This document shows, piece after piece, positions 28,586 through 37,610 of a stretch of DNA of 64,000 bases. The notes beneath the pieces are model-generated. The model saw only the letters and a program-made list of their open reading frames with translations, was not told the origin of the DNA and did not search any database. The stretch is from Protoeuglena noctilucae. Taxonomy: Eukaryota. A program made the position numbers and the translations under genes. Location: contig OY253676.1 of the NCBI GenBank assembly GCA_958009085.1, forward strand, positions 434,001 to 498,000, written 5' to 3'. Numbering within the stretch: the first letter of the stretch is position 1; every line of letters begins with the position of its first letter.

Positions 28586-29357
28586 ATGTCATATCTCCTG
28601 CCCCACCTGCACTCGGGGTTCGCCGTGGATCAGGCCATCGTGTCGGAGGAGGACAGGGTAGTGTGCATCCGGTTCGGCCACGACCACGACCCCGAATGCA
28701 TGCTCCAGGTGCCTGCGGATGGCCGCTGCGTAATTCCTCCCCTCCGTCGCTGCCGGGCTTGCCGCAGGCGACGCGCGCGATCCCATCCTTCGCAGGACGA
28801 GACGTTGGTGGGCATCGCGGACAAGGTTAAGAACTACGCCGTCATCTACTTGGTCGACATCACGGAGGTCCCGGACTTCAACACCATGGTGGGGCGCGAA
28901 GGGGCGCTGGCTATCTGCCGTGATGTGCAAGCTCCAACGCAGCGTCTCCTGAATCATCTCGCCCAGGACCAGTCCCATTCAAGGGTCTCCTGGCTTACTT
29001 GCCCGCAGTATGAGCTGTACGATTCGTGCACGATGATGTTCTTCTTCCGCAACAAGCACATCATGATTGACTTGGGCACGGGTAACAACAACAAGATCAA
29101 CTGGGCCCTGACGGACAAGCAGGAGCTCATCGACATCATCGAGACGGTCTACCGGTGAGGAACTGGGTCCCTGCGCGGTGCAGCAGGTCCCCTTGCCTTC
29201 CGTGCAAGCAGTCATGAGCGTCTGCGCTCTGGACGCCACGTGGTGCTCCCTGCGGCTCTCATTCAAGCGAACCGTCCATGCCGGTCGCAGGGGTGCCAGG
29301 AAGGGACGGGGCCTGGTCGTCTCCCCGAAGGATTACTCCACCAAGTACCGATACTAG
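28586..29357 (+). CDS. DIM1: U5 snRNP protein Dim1/TXNL4A (YLS8), 4 exons
   Basis: MSYLLPHLHSGFAVDQAI..., VDITEVPDFNTM|YELYD, RNKHIMIDLGTGNNNKINWA, GARKGRGLVVSPKDYSTKYRY-TAG. Confidence 0.97.
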
Positions 29358-29386
29358 GCCGGTAGCGGACGCGCGCTTCTCGGGAG

Positions 29387-30377
29387 CTACGTTGATCCCT
29401 TCTGGGGCGCCTCCTTGCCATCAGATCCACTGACCAAACCCCACCGCTGCAAGTGCTCCATTCCATCGACCCCGTACATGGATGCGAGGATGATGGCCAC
29501 CGTGGCGCCCTGTCCGTAGATACGCCAGCTCTGTGGCGAAGGTGGAGAGGGCCTGGTGCGTCTGGTTGAAGCGCTTGCACTTTGAACCGTGCTGTCATGG
29601 GCCTCGGCCTCTTGCCAGCCAGCGAATTGCAATCGCCGCTCACCATCATCCTCGCGCTGAGCTGGCTGTTTCCTTGACGGAAGGCCCAGATCCCACGCGC
29701 CAGGACGCCTGCCGTGAGCATCGCCCCCGCCAGCACCAGGGGGTTGCGCTTGCGCTTGGGAGGCTCTGAGGATGCCGAAGGTGCCAGTCAGTGGATGCAA
29801 TATCCACTGTGCGAAAAGTGAAACGAAAGGACAGCCTGGGCCTCACCAGAGAGCACGTCCAGGGATGGGATGCCGGTCTGGCCGACCACGTCCAGCGTGA
29901 CCCTGTACAGCGCGCGGGCGATATCGAGTCTGCAATGCCCGGCAATGCGTTGTCAAGGCATGCCGTGCTGAGCCCCAGCGGCAACGTACCCATCGTTGGG
30001 GCTCGCTCCGCTCGTGCTTGGCTGGGACGACCCTTGCCGAGATTGGCCGTCAGCATCGGCTCTCGGCCTCTCCTGCACGAAGCGGTCGCTGAAGAGAGTC
30101 TGCATCACGATCATTTGCAGGGGACTGCGCAGACTCAGCCTGGCCTCTCTCGTCACCTCGGCGGGGAGCTTCGATCGGTTCAAGGCTTGGCGAAGCAGAG
30201 CATCCCTCTCTTTTTGCTTGCGCTCGTCGTCCGGGACTGCGCGGCGAAAGGATGGCGCGTGTGGCGAGCATGAGGCGGGCGCCGACGGCGCCAATGGGCT
30301 CAGCCACGCGAGGCAGCAGATTGGTGCCCTTGAGCAGGCATCGCTCGCAGCTCGAATCATCACGTACCTCCAGCCAT
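29387..30377 (-). CDS. HIG1 (hypoxia-induced/Rcf1-like) domain mitochondrial membrane protein, multi-exon
   Basis: KRNPLVLAGAMLTAGVLARGIWAFRQGNSQLSARMM|SWRIYGQGATVAII is the HIG1 core; upstream exons join in frame using one GC donor at 30037. Confidence 0.8.
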
Positions 30378-30753: not shown

Positions 30754-33700
30754 ATGTCGTACTCTAAGCACTTCGGGGGGACCAATGGGGTCGACTTGCG
30801 TCATGCGAGCGACCAGCCGACAGGTGCGTCGCACCCACACGACTGAGGCTGGCAGTGGGCTGCGCGCCCCACCCTCGTTCATTTCCACGTCGCGCAGAGT
30901 ACCACACGATGTACTTGTCTACGGTGACGGGCAACGACGACAGCCGTCTGAACCGGCGACTGCAGCCGCGAAGAGACGACGACCCGCTGTACGTTTCCAA
31001 GTTCCAGACGAGGTGTGGGCCGCCTTGCACGGGGCGAAGCGTGGAGACAGCCCCGCTTTGTCTGCATAACAGAGCGCATGTGCCGAGCCGGGCCGCAGGG
31101 ACGTGACGGGGGTTGTGGAGGCCGAGGCGCGCGTCCCTGTCCATTTTTCAGCGACTAGGAAAGACGTTACGGGCAGCCTCGCGAAGCAATTCACGGAAGA
31201 CCCCCAGCAGGTGAGGCAGATCGGTGGCTGCGCGTCCGAGCGGGGCCAGGCTCGCCGCCCCCGGTCGAGCAAAAAACGCTGCTGGCTTTCTGATACAGCG
31301 CGACTGGCCCTTCGCTCACAGGGCCCCGCCACGCGCATTCCTAAGGAGGACCGTCGAGTGGGGCTGGCGTACGAGTGGCACCTGACCAGGGTCGCTGAGA
31401 AAGTCCCCTACTCCCAGGCGAGCCATACCGCCTTCCTGGCCTTGTCGGAGCCACGTTCTGTGGCCTGCCTTGATCCTCGCCCGCTCCTTCGCACCGTGAC
31501 ATGCATAACATGACCCCGGCTCTCCTGCCGCGCAGCTCCCAGCTCCGCAGCCGTCCCCTGTCCCTCCTGACTTCCCATCCCAACCCGTCTTCACGGAGCC
31601 CTGGGCCAAGTACAACCCCGACTTCTACCGGCAGAGGGCCGCGCCTGTCCGCTCCGTGGGCTTGGATGTCACCGACATTCCGGGCGCCACGGCCCGGCTC
31701 CCCAAAGAAGTCACCGTGCGCGACCCCCTCGACTACCGCGACGTGCCTCTGGTGACCGGCGCCCTGCCCCGTCGCGAGCATTTGACGTCGCATGCGCCAT
31801 GCCCATGACGCATAAACGCCTCTCTGTTCCGTTCCCTGCAGTCCTTCTCTGGGTCCCGCCAGCCCAGGGTCCGACCGGAGTTCCGGGACCATTTGTCGGT
31901 GCGGGACATCAACGCCAAGCCTTTACCCCAGGAGCGAGAGCCCTTCCCGCCCGTGGCGGAGGCGCGGCCGACCGTGCACGTGCTCACCCGGCAGAGGGGC
32001 CCGACGGACCTCTCTCTCACCACGGGCGACGTGGGGGCGGTGCCCCGCAACCCCCACGACGCCGCGATGCCGATGCGGGGGCCCCGGTGGATGCGCAACC
32101 CCGCCGACAGCGCCGACATCGAGGGGGCGCAGCCGCGACTGAAGCTCCCGCTCCAGGAGCGCCACGCGAGGAAGCTCGCGCAGGCCGAGGAGAGGGCACA
32201 GGCGCTCGAGGAGGGCCGGCGCGCGGCGGCGGAGGTCCGCCTCCCGCAGTCCACCGTCGCGTCGCTGTTGGCGGGGATGGCCCGCGTGGACCGGGACTCG
32301 TGCGGCATCGTCAGCGCGTTCGACGCCCGCAAGGCGCTGCGGGTGGGGCTGGGCGCGGACGCGGCCGCCACGGCCGAGCGAGCGCTGGCCGGGTTCACGG
32401 ACAACGTCGGCAACATCAAGTACCGGGAGCTGCACGACGCGTTGGCGCGCGTGGCGGTGCCGGACCCGGAGCCTGCGCCGAGGGCTGCGGATGAGGCGCC
32501 TCGGCCTGCCCCCCAAGCAGCACGCGAGGCGATCCAGGCGAGCATCGATGGGATAGGCCACTGGGAGCAAGAGCCACGAACAGCGTCAAGAGATTTTTTT
32601 CTCCTGATCTCGCGTCATGCTTTGATGTGTTGCTGTACACAGGGTGACGCGGAGGCGGCTGCGGTGACGGCCCCAGCGCAGGCGGAGGCTCACGAGGACG
32701 CCGGCCGACAGGGCGACGACGGGGGCGCAGGTGTGCGTAGGCATGCGTCATGTGTACCCATGTGCAGTGGCATGTCAGGCATGTCGCGCTGCCGCCTCTG
32801 CCAGTGTGGGCGAGTCTCTCCAACCCCGCCCTGCTCGCTTGCTCCCTCTCAGGGCCCGTGGGCAGCTTGGTGGAGTGGGAGGCGGGCCACGAGGACGGCG
32901 GGCTGGGGGCGGCGGGCGGCGTCAGCCGCGGTCGCAAGTGGGTGCCTGAAAGGGCCAACCCTCGGCCCAAGCGGCAGGTCCTGGCCAACAACCCCGGCCG
33001 GCGGGGTGTCCAGGGAGCGACGACGGGGCTCATCGGGACTGCGTCGGCTTACAGTGAGTGCCGCTGAACAGAGACTCTGGCATCGATGTGCTCTGCATCT
33101 GTGTCTAGTAGCACACGCAATTGCTATCGATCTCCTGACGAGTTCAGAGGACACCGACACGACATTCACGCATCGGCTTGCCGTCCCGCAGTCCCCACGA
33201 CGGAGCGCACGGGTCTCTCGCCGCCCAGCCCAGCGGCGGCGTCGCACCCCGCCAGCCCCGTAGAGGCACGCCGGTCGGGCTCTCCCACCGCCCAGCCGCG
33301 GCGCACCCCGCCGGGGCCCCGCACGCTTTTCGCGTCGGGAGGTGCCACGCTCCCCGTGGCCCACGCCTTCCTGCCATCCGGTTCGGCCGCCAGCCGTGCG
33401 CCCGGCAGCCCCGCGGCCCGGGGCGCGCCCTCTCCGTCGCAGCGGGGAGGCGCGACGGGGGAGTGGGGCACGGCCAGGCTCAGCGTGGTGACGGGGCGGC
33501 CGTTGCAGCTGGTCCCTGCTTCCAAGGCAGAGCCCGAGATGGGCGTGAGCAAGAGGAGGGCTAGAGAGGCGCTACAGGTGAGCCTGGGTTCAAGGGCGCT
33601 GGGGAGTAACACTTCCATGGCAGGCGAGCAGGCGGGCGGGCGAATGGGTGGGCGGTCGCCATCCCGTTGATGGCGAGGCAAAGACAGCGGTGGCAATTTG

Positions 33701-33802
33701 GGGAGGGTAACTCTTACGAGCAGGGTGTGACTAAGGCTAAGTAAAGCTGCTGTTTAACATTCGCAGGAAGAGCTGAATACGATCGCGGACCTGCCGTTGT
33801 GA
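30754..33802 (+). CDS. Uncharacterised protein with DIxGA-type repeats and an EF-hand-like pair, multi-exon
   Basis: Consistent in-frame exons; motifs DVTDIPGATARL, TTGDVGAVPR, DSADIEGAQPRL; VDRDSCGIVSAFDARKAL and TDNVGNIKYRELHDAL; last exon EELNTIADLPL-TGA. Confidence 0.6.
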
Positions 33803-33853
33803 GGCACGCGAAGGCCACGACAGGCGCGGAGGCGGCTGGAGATAGGCCCGAGT

Positions 33854-36800
33854 TCACGTCTTCACAAAAGCGATGTCCGTGATGACGCCCATCATCTCTC
33901 GTATCTTGGCCTCGTTGATGTTGAAGGAATAGATGGGCTCCCCCGTCGCAGCCGTGCTGCGTGTGTCATGGAAACGACGCCTCGTTTGGTGCTATTGTTC
34001 CCTGACACAACAGAGCCAGCACAGACAGCAACGCGTGGGCCAGACAGTGTCAACTACACGCGCTGTGCCGGACCAAGATACACTGGCGCTTCACAATCGC
34101 GAACCCCAGCTGCCCTGCACCGGTGGGGCCCTGTGCCCCAGCACACTCGCCTGTACGTGAGCCATCCGTGGTCGAGGAGCTCTTTCAAATGGTCCTGGAC
34201 GCTGCGCTGGTTCGTGGCCACGAAGGCGTGCTCGCAGCGACGGAAGAGCTCAGAGGCAGGCACGCGGCCCCCCGTGACCTGGGCCATGCTGCACGCCTCC
34301 GCCAGCAGCACGAGCGTGGACCGCGTCGCAGCCCTGTGGGACGCAACCACGCGTGCCGTGGTATGCACGAGCCAGCTGAGCCACCGAGTAATGCACTGGT
34401 GCTGCCAGCTGTGCTGCAAGCAGACCTTGCAATGCCGCAGGCTCGTGACACGGCTCTGCTGCCCCAGCAACCCCACCATGTATGCCATGGCCGCTCACCG
34501 CAGGATGCTCCGCAGCTCGTCCATGGACAGCTCCGGCCTTGCGACATCCCCGGCGCCCTCTTCCTCCTCCTCCTCCTCCCCAGACCCCTCACCCGCCCCC
34601 GCAGCTGCCCCCGCAGCCCTGCGTGCCGCCGCCCCCGTCCCCCGCCTGCGCACGTGGGCCGTCTCCTCGGCGCACGGGGCGTGCGTGTGGACGTACCTGG
34701 GGCCCCACCAGAAGCGCTCGCAGATGGAGCGCGTCCACATGACAGGGAACAGCACCGTGTCGACACTGGCGGCCAGGCGGAAGCTGGGGGCGGTGGTCAG
34801 GAACGAAAGGGGCTCCTGGTCCTCCTCCGCGTTCAGCACGGGGCCGTCCAGGCCGTGGATGAGCACGTACAGCACGCGGGCGCAGGGAGACTCGATCTGT
34901 GGCCACGGGAGCGACAAGGGAGACGTGAGAGGCACAGGGCACGGGGCGGCGCTTGGGGCGGTCCAGCCACGGCCTTTGCCAATGCCCGTCACCTCGAACT
35001 GCTCCGTCAGCCGGGCGGCGAGGTCTTCCGCGCGGAGCGCTGCGTAGTCCGGGACTTGCCGCGGCGTGCCGTTGAGTAGCTGCTCGCCGACAACGCGCAT
35101 GATGTGGGGCAAGCGGTCCCTGGGGTTGTGTCCGAAGAATTGAACGATGCCGGCCAGCTTGTCCCTGCGCAGCATCTCCTGCGAGGACCAGACACGACAC
35201 GCGTGCCATCCACCGCGTCACAAATCATGCACCTCATATCCACGCCATATCCATCTTCATCCACGTGCCCATTGAAACTCACTGAGTAACATTCGTCCCC
35301 GACAATACCCCAGCCAGGCCTCACCTCCGCGAACGTCCGCAGGACCAGCCGCTTGGACCCGACCCCGATGAGCAGCACGCTCCTGCCCAGCACCAAGTCC
35401 GCAGCCCAGCTGCCGAACTGACCCCTGGCCTCCTCCAAAGCCTCCTGTTCCCTCTCCATCACCACGTTCTCGATGCCCGTCTCCTCCACCAGCGCCCGCA
35501 CCTCCTCCGCGGTATGCCATACGATCCCCACGTCGCTCAACCGCAGTCGGCTCTTGCTCAGGCTCCCCAGCCACGACTCCTGCCCCCTCTGCGGCTCCTC
35601 TTTCTGCCCCGCTGGCCCTGGCTCTTCCTCGTCTTCCGATGAAGAAGAGTTCTCTGGGTCACGGCCGCCCGCATCGCCCGGCGGGGCACCGCCGCTGCCT
35701 CCCTCGCCACCTGCGCGCGTGTGAAGTGTGTGTTTCACAAACTGAGAGATCCCGGGCCCCACGCTGCGGTCTGCGCAACGCGCCCTGAGGGAGGCGCAGG
35801 GCGCCCCAGGTGCACCGTCACAGTCACAGCGGATGATGGGCCCATTGCGTGTATCACCTGTCGGCGTAGGTGCCCCCACTGCCACGGACTCCGTGCCCGC
35901 GTTCTTCCTCCGCTTGGACAGCGAGTGCCCCGCTCGCTCCAGCTCCGTCCGATTCTGCTAGGTAGAGAAGAGCAGGGACACTGGCTGAGCCGTCATGCGC
36001 ATGCGTGAAGCTGCAGACAGCTGGACATGCGCCTCCCCCGCTGCACTGCCGGCATGGTTCACGGGCCCGACCGCCACCCTCACCTGCTCCCCGATGTCGC
36101 AAATGCCCTCTCTGTCGAGCCGCACCAACGCCTCGGCTTGCTCTAGGGGGAAGTTGAGGGGCCGCAGGACGGGCCCAGCCCTGCTCGCCTCCGCATCAAA
36201 GACATCGTGCTTGAGCTCGCCGGAGGGCTTCCGGGCAACCAGCAGCGCGTCTGCAGCCCGAGCCGCCTCCTGGAAGCAAAGGCAAAAGGGAGTCTGGGAT
36301 TCAGGAGATGTGCTATCAAACCTCACCTCCACGTGCGCAGCACTGTTGCAACCGAGAGGGGCCAGGCCGCTCACCGCGCTCGTGCTATACTTGGCCCTGT
36401 CACCAAGCAGGCTCCCGTCGCTTAGTGGGATTTGGACGACCCACTTGCCGCTCTGCTTCTGCTGTGATGTGTACTTATACGTCACCTCCACAGCGGCCGC
36501 CACCCTGGTCCCGGCGCTTGCGGCCCGCGGCGCCGCACCGCGTTTCGGGTAGGGGCTTGCTGCGACGAAGGCGAAGGCTGGTGTGGATTAGCTGAGATCG
36601 TCATGAGGCATCCCCCACGGACCCTCGCCTATGCGCCCCTCACTGCGAGGGGAGGGCTTCCAACGCAAAGCCTGCCGGCGTTCCTCCGTCGTCAGGATTG
36701 CGTGCGACGCCTTCACGCTGGCACGTGCCGATCGTCGCACCCTGCGGAACCGACCAGCAGCAGGGGGTCTGGTTGGGTTGCACAGGGCAAGCGTGGCATG

Positions 36801-36950
36801 GGCCCTGCAGCCCAGGCCGATAGCGGCGGTGACCGGTGCGTACCCCGCTGGCTGCGGCTGATCTCCCGCACGCTCTTCGTCCGTCCTCTCCTCGCGCGCA
36901 CCCCCTCCTTTGCCTTCGGCCTTCCTGGCCTTTGCGGATGCCGCGGGCAT
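33854..36950 (-). CDS. ORC2: Origin recognition complex subunit 2 with N-terminal AP2-like domain, multi-exon
   Basis: ORC2 core: QFGSWAADLVLGRSVLLIGVGSKRLVLRTF, LYVLIHGLDGPVL, RLAASVD, THAPCAEET, winged helix ELFRRCEHAFVATN...HLKELLDHGWL. Upstream exons join in frame through GT-AG introns. Confidence 0.8.
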
Positions 36951-37610
36951 GACGACCCTGCGGCGGTGAGCGGACGATGATGGTGTTCACCTCCGCGCAA
37001 CGACCAGTCTTATCCGACACCAGCAGCATCTCACGGGCCGACCGCACAGCGCGCGCGAAGCGAGCGCCATCCCACACCCACGCTAAAGAAGCACCTCCTC
37101 GTCGCCCCTCCGCGGCCGATCCGCGCGAACTAGTCGTCTGCAAGACACTTCTTCAGCGATGGAGTCGGATACCGGCAGAAACGTCTGGCTTGCGCCCTGG
37201 AGACTCGCAGCCAAGCCAGCGCGCACAGCAGAGAGTGTTGGTCTGTCCTCGCTCCTGCAGTTGTCGCCCGCCTTGTCTAAAACGCTGCGACCTTTCACCC
37301 AGCGAAAAGGAAGCCAGGGATGATCGTGCGACTGCATCGCAGCCCCCGTAGAGGTGCGGGCCAGACCACATGTCAGGCGTCAGAGGGGCGTGGCATTGAG
37401 CGTGGCCGAACTGGCCAGTAACTGTCAGTCCAATGCAATGCTCCGTGACCGGCGCGCCCCACGGAGGGGTTTGCCGCATCGCTTGCTCGCGCTCCTTGCA
37501 TGTCTCAGCCTCAAGCGTCCGTGCCAGCCCCTTCCCAGCAAGCCTTCTCATAAGCTACCCTTTCTTCGACTCGCTCTGCTCTGTCGAGTTTCCCTGCATC
37601 CGCTGGCAAG

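Follow-up and report, generated by a model that had tools for sequence, protein, structure and literature searches.

Whether a marine alga has attached a transcription-factor-type DNA-binding domain to a subunit of ORC is the question raised by a gene on the minus strand at 33854-36950 of the window, that is, of the whole 64-kb stretch of DNA analysed here. How ORC selects origins in organisms other than budding yeast is still an open problem; in animals, plants and most fungi the known specificity elements are absent and another mechanism is needed, as stated by Hu et al. (2020, PMC7560902). The fusion of an N-terminal module to ORC2 at this locus is real. The gene encodes an expressed ORC2 with an N-terminal island whose likeliest identity is a strongly diverged DNA-binding domain of the AP2/ERF type, an assignment which, judged from the sequence, has about an even chance of being correct.

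Gene structure and transcript evidence

The locus constitutes a single intron-rich gene with an open frame of 642 amino acids that starts at position 36950 (ATG) and closes with the stop codon at 33854-33856. The features of the gene, all on the minus strand, are as follows.

36958..37094, minus strand: putative 5'-UTR intron of 137 nt, GT..AG (gtgctt...ccgcag), with its acceptor 7 nt before the ATG
36844..36957, minus strand: exon 1, with the ATG at 36950 and the basic, Ala/Lys/Arg-rich start of the N-terminal tail; RNA contig piece 36869-36959
36644..36741, minus strand: exon 2, basic tail; hand model from a CAG acceptor, a GTGAGG donor and frame only; GC3 0.73
36375..36559, minus strand: exon 3, predicted sheet half of the AP2-like module; final 26 nt joined to exon 4 by RNA; GC3 0.77
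36270..36374, minus strand: intron of 105 nt splitting the module between predicted sheet and helix, GTGAGC..CCAG; RNA joint 36268 to 36374, CT..AC on the plus strand
36084..36269, minus strand: exon 4, predicted helix half, insertion, LNFP, then an amphipathic stretch; entirely within X1 record 4; GC3 0.81
35858..35954, minus strand: exon 5, KRRK basic patch and start of the linker; RNA joints 35954 to 36084 and 35707 to 35855
35325..35710, minus strand: exon 6, Gly/Ser/acidic linker followed by the first part of the ORC2 RecA-like domain; PF04084; X1 records 3 and 4 and X2 record 7
34993..35178, minus strand: exon 7, middle of the ORC2 RecA-like domain; RNA joints 35177 to 35324 and 34896 to 34993; aligns to other ORC2 proteins
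34499..34896, minus strand: exon 8, most conserved part of ORC2, then an Ala/Gly/Glu-rich insert; PF04084, 51.5 bits
34151..34333, minus strand: exon 9, ORC2 winged-helix domain; PF24882; RNA joints 34332 to 34498 and 33956 to 34151
33854..33956, minus strand: exon 10, end of the winged helix and stop TGA at 33854-33856; joined to exon 9 by RNA in three runs (X1, X3 and X4)

The initial annotation had proposed that the exons upstream of ORC2 join it in frame through three introns, with no stop between the two parts, and its coordinates were all found to be correct when checked on the sequence. Read on the minus strand, each of the introns begins with GT and ends with AG: 36270-36374 (105 nt), 35955-36083 (129 nt) and 35711-35857 (147 nt). 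The frame remains open over 642 codons. Marine metatranscriptome RNA contigs that are 100% identical to the locus show all three introns spliced, this evidence consisting of assembled contigs rather than single reads. The most informative is a 488-nt contig (X1 record 4) that links exon 3, by way of exons 4 and 5, to the first exon of ORC2; it covers 36399-36374, 36268-36084, 35954-35855 and 35707-35531, and each of the three introns is absent from it. Because this contig spans exon 3 to the first ORC2 exon, the N-terminal exons and ORC2 lie on one spliced mRNA, and the proposed joins are borne out, the exon 3 junction being supported by a 26-nt stretch of a single contig (run X1). The intron following exon 9 is of the GC-AG type (RNA joint with CT..GC ends).

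Towards the 5' end the gene structure is less closely constrained by RNA. The interval 36440-36753 is free of listed RNA contigs, a gap that does not count against the junctions of exon 1 with exon 2 and of exon 2 with exon 3; these were modelled by hand, as was the exon 1 donor (GTACGC at 36843; exon 1 GC3 0.69, ambiguous). The intron placed before exon 2 is 102 nt long, in frame and stop-free, and read-through is equally possible; the 105-nt intron that splits the module is also in frame and stop-free. Exon 3 needs an upstream exon, because its open frame contains no ATG and is preceded by a stop at 36588-36590. The ATG at 36950 is the first in the mRNA after the 5'-UTR splice. The putative 5'-UTR intron is based on 10 loose letters of an X1 contig, plus 2 ambiguous ones, next to window position 36959, which match a single site in the window, at 37095-37106 of the plus strand (0.03 expected by chance).

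Two further observations were made in this region. A joint from 37186 to 36869 in an RNA contig goes back 318 nt, with splice signals and any notable repeat both absent, and is probably an assembly artefact. A Pfam scan of the 29.2-42.9 kb interval, covering 61 long open frames, gave a single match, HIG_1_N at 29266-29787, which is uninformative as to the neighbouring genes and the organism.

Identity of the ORC2 core

The gene encodes a divergent but complete ORC2, comprising RecA-like and winged-helix domains at residues of about 269-642. Two unspliced pieces matched the Pfam family PF04084 (RecA-like_ORC2) with 28.1 bits (positions 12-72) and 51.5 bits (positions 134-211), both exceeding the cut-off of 25.1 bits, and the organism's own fragment P0001 carries a precomputed PF04084 match. 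The winged-helix family PF24882 (WHD_ORC2) scored 25.3 bits against a cut-off of 27.3, where the piece tested was exon 9 only of an intron-split domain; an alignment of the spliced C-terminus with the P0052 winged helix reached 30 bits.

An exhaustive search returned 39 matches besides the organism's own fragment, of which 38 are ORC2 by Pfam and the remaining one is an NB-ARC protein. Named ORC2 matches came from Tetraselmis, Chlorokybus, Coccomyxa, Pythium and an insect. The best foreign matches in this search reached only 35-41 bits over one 60-residue motif, named green-lineage ORC2 proteins, compared with the complete spliced model, no more than 71-75 bits, and the closest relatives (P0017, P0051 and P0052; 603-660 aa) about 115 bits. 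A word-index protein search with an ORC2 exon returned only the organism's own fragments.

Layout of the N-terminal extension

Upstream of the core lies an extension of 268 residues in three parts: a basic low-complexity tail (residues 1-90), a compact hydrophobic island of approximately 100 residues (91-192) and a Gly/Ser/acidic linker (193-268) that is 5% hydrophobic and contains 41% P+G+S. Hydrophobic residues make up 28% of the island; the figure is 10% and 5% for the two flanking parts and 35-36% for the ORC2 domains. The module peptide is encoded at 36482-36147, with YKYT..GKWVVQI..LLG..KYSTSA at 36482-36375 in exon 3 and LNFP ending at 36147 in exon 4; the intron sits precisely at the KYSTSA/EAARAAD boundary. 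Relative to AP2 domains there are insertions of 3 residues before the predicted helix and of about 15-19 before the closing LNFP. The module is followed by KRRK in exon 5, a possible nuclear localisation signal, and then by an acidic/Gly-rich linker. No paralogue of the module was found in the window, where the next tblastn match had an E value of 0.64. A likeness of exon 2 to the N-terminus of P0051, noticed by eye, was rejected, as 867 of 1,000 shuffles scored as high.

Similarity of the island to AP2 domains

The initial annotation had described the island as AP2/ERF-like. This was examined using a profile of 75 viral and phage domains, each of them a match to Pfam PF00847 or related to one. 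Reference members of the family were the plant ERF1, WRI1 and TEM1 structures (1gcc, 7wq5 and 7et4) and the HNH-AP2 proteins of phages RB49 and Felix O1. The spliced module scored 9.7 bits by script (P 6.2e-5), with a second value of 9.0 bits (P 6e-5 to 1e-4 over the two), aligning with profile positions 5-45 across the exon junction, of which the exon 3 part accounts for 5-38. The reversed sequence scored -3.0 bits. None of 5,000 shuffles reached the score of the module (maximum 8.1), and among 1,617 natural 95-residue tiles from the six frames of the window the top two were the locus itself, unspliced (6.8 and 6.7), followed by a tile at 3.8. Other natural proteins compared gave -0.9 or less. 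With hhalign the spliced module obtained a probability of 68% (P 4.7e-5) over 42 columns, compared with 24.7% over 22 columns for the unspliced sequence; removal of the intron thus extends the match in register. Support for the AP2-like character comes from the viral/phage profile and hhalign and stays under every curated family threshold. Plant AP2 domains of known structure score 34-85 bits with the same profile and a divergent Plasmodium domain 16.4, and the Pfam AP2 cut-off is 33.3 bits, far above the 9-10 bits of the module. A P value of 6e-5 is not significant when multiplied by some 25,000 Pfam families, and the P values are optimistic in that the AP2 family had been pre-selected in the initial annotation from the same motifs.

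At the level of individual residues, an alignment of viral AP2 domains (71 rows) has 18 columns that are at least 80% conserved. The module retains 12 of these (Y, K, W, I, L, G, four A, G and N) and has lost six, namely S, the G and V of K-G-V, W, the Y of A-Y-D, and A. The spacing between Y-K-x-x and K-W-x-x-x-I is 17 residues, identical to that in phage RB49 and in the second WRI1 domain, and the module shares with PF00847 an L-G, an aromatic residue five positions before E-A-A-R-A-x-D, a predicted helix, a Gly and L-N-F-P. It differs in lacking the Gly-Val of K-G-V, the Trp that follows and the Tyr of A-Y-D, and in belonging to a replication protein rather than a transcription factor or HNH nuclease. 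MAFFT placed LNFP on the viral LNF, and the helix and the following Gly on AP2 columns as well. The LNFP tail by itself is a weak match, its score being equalled by 157 of 5,000 shuffles and by 19 of 3,861 natural tiles. In a language-model look-alike search the ten best named clusters were all AP2, with scores of only 0.76-0.77, and this is treated as a lead only; exon 4 alone gave no usable match in this search.

Other searches returned no relative. Pfam AP2 gave no match (E up to 10) to the unspliced whole or to either half, a test weakened by a 35-residue intron insert and by the HMMER filters. PHROGs and NCBIfam yielded no AP2 match to the unspliced pieces, the best being a family of unknown function and Gar1 (E 0.017-0.19), and a PDB sequence search of the same pieces found no AP2 match. 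As with the ORC2 exon, word-index protein searches with the module recovered only the organism's own fragments, P0041 and P0001 over all of these searches, and a metagenome scan with exon 4 produced 603 pattern matches, none of them a relative. AlphaFold gave a mean pLDDT of 36.5 from the single sequence and 58.1 with the viral alignment, where strands 1 and 2 and the helix were confident and strand 3 was formed from intron-encoded residues. Neither model was accepted as evidence of fold, the first for its low confidence and the alignment-guided one because it represents the unspliced read-through and is circular, being guided by the alignment.

A literature search covering AP2-ORC2 fusions and ORC DNA-binding modules found no described AP2-ORC2 fusion, in agreement with the initial annotation, and Pfam detected AP2 in none of the 39 retrieved proteins, 38 of which are ORC2. 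No AP2 signal was found in the long N-termini of the closest ORC2 relatives, P0017, P0051 and P0052.

Alternative explanations

Wrongful joining of two genes, one small and AP2-like and the other ORC2, would account for the composite without any fusion. The RNA is contig-level only, the exon 3 junction has the 26 nt of the X1 contig behind it, and two contigs of run X2 (35630-35806 and 35912-36064) read straight through two of the three introns, which may represent pre-mRNA, retained introns or DNA carry-over. Against this reading, a single contig carries three consecutive GT..AG splices on the same strand, leading from exon 3 to the exon in which the RecA-like match begins. No stop separates the parts, and since the first Met of the ORC2 exons (residue 309) sits inside the conserved domain, ORC2 requires the upstream exons for its start. 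The two-gene reading is largely refuted and highly improbable. An alternative that accepts the fusion places it in a neofunctionalised second ORC2, such as a chromatin or transcription factor that uses ORC2 as its scaffold, with a canonical ORC2 elsewhere serving replication. The ORC2 core is indeed unusually divergent, as seen in its scores with foreign and green-lineage proteins, and contains the Ala/Gly/Glu-rich insert. Against this, every part of ORC2 is present and in order, and the similar length and divergence of the closest relatives suggest a fast-evolving lineage rather than a paralogue; no second ORC2 occurs within the window. This paralogue reading is regarded as distinctly unlikely.

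The most serious competitor also accepts the fusion and concerns the island, which would be a lineage-specific domain or a partly ordered segment of no AP2 ancestry, its GKW, EAARA.D and LNFP motifs having arisen by chance in an Ala/Arg-rich proteome. Curated family models and PDB sequences gave no match to the unspliced pieces, the score of the module lies below that of every solved AP2 domain tested (16-85 bits), and invariant AP2 residues such as the Gly of K-G-V and the Tyr of A-Y-D are lost. Alanine, abundant throughout this sequence, accounts for four or five of the 12 columns that are kept, the AP2 family was chosen after the fact, and other ORC2 proteins (483-660 aa) likewise have long N-termini lacking a recognised domain. 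Many eukaryotes have long, variable ORC2 N-termini, which usually serve as regulatory, protein-binding or unspecific DNA-binding tails. Chance resemblance is harder to reconcile with a match that exceeds all 5,000 shuffles and, across the six frames of this GC-rich window, any other tile of 95 residues, that crosses an exon junction in register and improves once spliced, and that an independent aligner (MAFFT) reproduces by setting the helix, Gly and LNFP on AP2 columns; the look-alike search, moreover, named AP2 unprompted. An island of non-AP2 origin is a substantial possibility, short of an even chance.

Comparison with known systems and proposed mechanism

AP2 proteins read the major groove of DNA with a domain consisting of a sheet and a helix. 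Under the preferred reading, in which the island is a divergent AP2/ERF-type domain, it would form a three-stranded sheet packed on a helix, the homology being suggested by sub-threshold profile evidence. Held on a flexible linker, such a module would provide ORC with an extra DNA contact outside the ring, which may be sequence-selective and, by analogy with the N-terminal AT-hooks of fission yeast Orc4, would bias the position of ORC.

In Schizosaccharomyces pombe these AT-hooks of Orc4, an autonomous DNA-binding module, localise initiation (Chuang & Kelly 1999, as cited in PMC7560902). The two systems share the order of module, flexible region and ORC core, with a small N-terminal module outside the AAA+/winged-helix ring. 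They differ in the subunit, Orc4 rather than Orc2, and in the module, repeated minor-groove AT-hook peptides as opposed to what is predicted to be a folded sheet-plus-helix domain; the algal module is encoded on the same mRNA as ORC2, and its binding to DNA is putative. In Saccharomyces cerevisiae, a loop of Orc2 and an alpha-helix of Orc4 make contact with DNA at origins and are associated with the sequence specificity of those origins, according to Hu et al. (2020, PMC7560902). The likeness lies in lineage-specific additions to ORC subunits, Orc2 included; as described there, the yeast additions are short insertions in the core that touch DNA within the ring, whereas the alga has a separate N-terminal domain and a linker of approximately 75 residues. 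A further parallel is P0021 of Cyanophora paradoxa (1,214 aa), a predicted ORC2 in which C2H2 zinc fingers, a DNA-binding domain of the transcription-factor type, lie N-terminal to the core. Its DNA-binding fold is a different one, and it is an automatic gene model that may represent two merged genes.

That ORC of this alga carries a transcription-factor-type AP2 reader on Orc2, and that its origins are set by a short DNA motif, is a rather doubtful proposition at present.

Significance

Should the module prove not to be AP2, the gene would still be a transcript-supported, unusually built ORC2 from a lineage without close sequenced relatives. To our knowledge, the AP2 fold has so far been known from transcription factors and homing endonucleases, and its presence on ORC2 would represent a new use of it. 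If the proposed reading is true, sequence-defined origins would have been invented independently outside the budding yeasts, by domain capture, with the ORC core not remodelled. An ORC subunit with a folded, potentially sequence-specific DNA-binding domain would then constitute a natural experiment, in which the motif of the module could be compared directly with mapped origins and the question of origin choice would be testable in one organism.

Gene model and ORC2 identity

The window has a GC content of 0.63-0.72 and many introns. The gene was modelled from splice signals and reading frame as ten exons running on the minus strand from 36950 to 33854. The spliced model comprises 642 codons with a single stop at its end.

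Exons and introns of the ORC2 gene (window coordinates; exons placed by splice signals and frame)
37094-36958, minus strand: 5' UTR intron, GT..AG; loose end of an X1 contig matched to +37095-37106
36950-36844, minus strand: exon 1, coding part from ATG; hand model
36741-36644, minus strand: exon 2; hand model
36559-36375, minus strand: exon 3; 3' joint in RNA
36270-36374, minus strand: intron, 105 nt; X1 record 4
36269-36084, minus strand: exon 4; RNA joints
35955-36083, minus strand: intron, 129 nt; X1 record 4
35954-35858, minus strand: exon 5; RNA joints
35711-35857, minus strand: intron, 147 nt; X1 record 4
35710-35325, minus strand: exon 6; ORC2 Pfam match begins here
35179-35324, minus strand: intron, 146 nt; RNA contigs
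35178-34993, minus strand: exon 7; RNA joints
34897-34992, minus strand: intron, 96 nt; RNA contigs
34896-34499, minus strand: exon 8; RNA joints
34334-34498, minus strand: intron, 165 nt; RNA contigs
34333-34151, minus strand: exon 9; RNA joints
33957-34150, minus strand: intron, GC-AG donor, 194 nt; RNA contigs
33956-33854, minus strand: exon 10

Unaltered window translations gave two Pfam matches to RecA-like_ORC2 (28.1 and 51.5 bits, cut-off 25.1). The ORC2 winged helix scored 25.3 bits against a cut-off of 27.3, the query piece holding only part of this intron-split domain. Searched exhaustively with HMMER, exons 7-8 matched 40 proteins, one of them the organism's own fragment; 38 of the other 39 were ORC2 by Pfam, the last being an unrelated NB-ARC protein, and the best foreign scores were only 35-41 bits. 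The closest cluster to the whole spliced model (P0017, P0051 and P0052; 603-660 aa) scored about 115 bits, and named green-lineage ORC2 (Tetraselmis, Chlorokybus, Coccomyxa) together with one oomycete ORC2 scored 71-78 bits. These relationships make it plausible that the organism is a green alga. On the Pfam matches and the predominance of ORC2 among the HMMER matches, the gene is classified as a very divergent ORC2.

A simple repeat at 34548-34589, encoding a Glu/Gly-rich insert within the ORC2 core in exon 8, was skipped in the mapping of RNA to the window, and the organism's public protein fragment P0001 departs from the window there, after ...RRAAGA, through another frame or an indel. This suggests that the low-complexity insert either varies in length between strains or reflects an assembly slip.

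Transcript evidence for the fusion

RNA was available as assembled contigs, numbered here as records, from four runs (X1-X4) of one marine metatranscriptome study, covering parts of the stretch. Aligned to the window at 100% identity, these contigs showed seven minus-strand introns. X1 record 4 (488 nt) starts in exon 3 at 36399 and ends in exon 6 at 35531, beyond which coverage is continued by X1 record 3 and X2 record 7. The three introns removed in X1 record 4 (36270-36374, 35955-36083 and 35711-35857) are exactly those predicted in the initial annotation. Because this contig splices exon 3 through to ORC2 exon 6, the fusion of the N-terminal exons to ORC2 that had been proposed is real at the RNA level, with the caveats that the joint into exon 3 comprises 26 nt of a single contig, that two X2 contigs are unspliced over two of the confirmed introns and that the exon 1-2 and exon 2-3 junctions are a hand model. 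GC3 in exons 3-5 was 0.77-0.81 versus 0.51-0.75 in intron phases, which favours coding; the values for exons 1-2 (0.69-0.73) are ambiguous in this respect.

The loose end of another X1 contig at 36959, extended by two ambiguous letters, had a unique window match at +37095-37106, placing the acceptor of a 5' UTR intron 7 nt ahead of the ATG at 36950. No upstream ATG was seen in the 5'-UTR exon sequence before this splice. These data show a single mRNA in which a complete ORC2 is preceded by a basic tail, then a compact module and a flexible linker.

Five of the seven RNA-confirmed introns have lengths divisible by three (105, 129, 147, 96 and 165 nt), as do the two hand-modelled introns (102 and 84 nt), and those of 105, 147 and 96 nt are in frame and stop-free. 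By binomial arithmetic the chance of at least five in seven is approximately 0.045. The excess could reflect chance or a tolerance of intron retention, X2 having unspliced contigs. An X1 contig also joins 37186 back to 36869, a return of 318; the joint lacks splice signals, and the only repeat close to it is imperfect and 14 nt long. The join could be an artefact of assembly or, as an unusual RNA, a back-splice.

Comparison of the N-terminal module with AP2 domains

The module (residues 91-192) has a hydrophobic content of 28%, compared with 35-36% in the ORC2 domains and 10% and 5% in its flanks, a composition that supports a folded island. The linker that follows is 41% Pro+Gly+Ser; Lys+Arg make up 22% of the basic tail.

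HNH-AP2 proteins are encoded by phages RB49 and Felix O1, as Magnani and co-workers reportedly described in 2004. Pfam PF00847 matched one AP2 domain in the RB49 record and three in that of Felix O1, two of the four exceeding the 33.3-bit cut-off. With these four domains as seeds, 80 viral loci (71 distinct) were collected, and a profile was built from 75 sequences. The module, spliced by coordinates and searched without filters, scored 9.7 bits (P 6.2e-5; reversed sequence -3.0). The aligned part, profile positions 5-45, begins in strand 1, crosses the exon junction and ends in the helix. None of 5,000 shuffles reached this score (maximum 8.1). When all six frames of the window were cut into natural 95-residue tiles (1,617 in total), the top two (6.8 and 6.7) were the unspliced module locus and the best elsewhere scored 3.8; among 56 proteins compared the sole positive was the organism's own read-through fragment (5.1; next -0.9), read-through denoting the module translated unspliced with intron 36270-36374 as a 35-residue insert.

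With the 71-row viral alignment A2, hmmsearch gave 9.0 bits (P 1e-4) and hhalign a probability of 68% (P 4.7e-5) over 42 columns for the spliced module, compared with 24.7% over 22 columns for the read-through; removal of the intron thus lengthens the match in the correct register. MAFFT independently set the helix, the following Gly and LNFP on matching viral columns. The module retains 12 of the 18 columns conserved in at least 80% of viral rows; among the six that it lacks are the invariant Gly of K-G-V and the Tyr of A-Y-D. The LNFP tail by itself is weak: its score is equalled in 157 of 5,000 shuffled sequences and in 19 of 3,861 natural tiles. In a protein-language-model look-alike search with the read-through, the ten best named clusters were all AP2 (scores 0.76-0.77), a lead only; exon 4 alone found nothing.

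A single-sequence AlphaFold model had a mean pLDDT of 36.5. With the viral alignment the mean was 58.1, strands 1-2 being confident at 77-85 and the helix at 70-81, in a model that is of the unspliced read-through, guided by the alignment, and whose third strand consists of intron-encoded residues through an alignment slip.

Searches of Pfam at E up to 10 found no AP2 on the read-through or either half of the module, PHROGs and NCBIfam yielded nothing relevant on unspliced forms, and phmmer found no match for these forms among PDB sequences. HMMER reports little beyond E of about 0.1. These negatives are weak, since the queries were half-domains or carried the 35-residue insert mid-domain. Against the same viral profile, plant AP2 structures scored 34-85 bits, and 3igm, a divergent AP2 domain from Plasmodium, reached 16.4 bits with a match confined to strands 1-2, so that the algal module, at 9-10 bits, lies further out than every solved AP2 member scored.

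The AP2 family was chosen in the initial annotation from these same motifs, and the P values therefore address whether the module is more AP2-like than chance, not to which family it belongs; corrected for the number of families in Pfam (roughly 25,000), P 6e-5 would not be significant alone and becomes borderline with the weak tail signal. The AP2/ERF-like assignment is partly supported. On sequence comparison, homology of the module to AP2 is somewhat favoured. That the island is instead an unrelated, lineage-specific domain is a substantial minority possibility, to which the distance from solved members is relevant; an extension of the match in register on intron removal need not occur with a chance resemblance. 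Independently of the fold, there is a low probability that the gene is a neofunctionalised paralogue, and it is very unlikely, given the splicing in X1 record 4, that the joining of the two parts is mistaken.

Relatives and gene neighbourhood

Word-index protein searches with the module returned the organism's own fragments alone. None of the 38 ORC2 proteins retrieved, nor the one other protein among the 39, had AP2 by Pfam, and a metagenome scan found no relative carrying the module. In the nearest ORC2 relatives the N-termini are long, without AP2 signal or significant similarity to the algal N-terminus. The predicted Cyanophora paradoxa protein P0021 (1,214 aa) carries C2H2 zinc fingers (around residues 492-516) N-terminal to a full ORC2 core (902-1181), and may be either a further case of a transcription-factor domain fused to ORC2 or the product of merging two gene models. 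The initial annotation knew of no described AP2-ORC2 fusion, and a full-text search covering mainly literature outside subscription journals likewise found no such architecture.

The organism's public fragment P0041 differs from the window read-through at two residues only. One is the first, Met in place of Val, probably a gene-caller's start codon; the other, R for Q, lies inside intron 35955-36083. The fragment is consistent with a second strain in which exons 3-4 are unchanged, on data far too few to speak to selection.

RNA contigs from three runs lack 33575-33763, a segment whose ends are GT..AG on the plus strand, opposite ORC2. X2 record 5 then reads unspliced through the last ORC2 exon and intron to 34108 (33764-34108), and X1 record 1 has introns of both orientations. 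Together these observations point to a convergent plus-strand gene that, through its 3' part, overlaps the 3' end of ORC2 in antisense; Pfam matched none of its open frames. A HIG_1_N (hypoxia-induced protein) domain at 29266-29787 on the minus strand (34.8 bits) was the sole Pfam match among 61 long open frames scanned across 29.2-42.9 kb.

Proposed function

According to Hu et al. (2020; PMC7560902), the known elements that give ORC specificity are a loop in Orc2 and a helix in Orc4 of S. cerevisiae and, in S. pombe, AT-hooks at the N-terminus of Orc4; other eukaryotes, they state, must use a different origin-specifying mechanism. By analogy with these AT-hooks, the algal module, as a putative divergent AP2-type sheet-plus-helix domain binding DNA, would be tethered to Orc2 by a linker of about 75 residues and could provide ORC with a second DNA contact near the ring. 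Such a contact would bias where ORC settles, possibly towards a short motif, and the basic tail and KRRK patch may contribute to nuclear import or to unspecific affinity for DNA. Should the AP2 reading hold, the gene would encode an ORC subunit to which a DNA-binding module has been added, a variant of an architecture already known.
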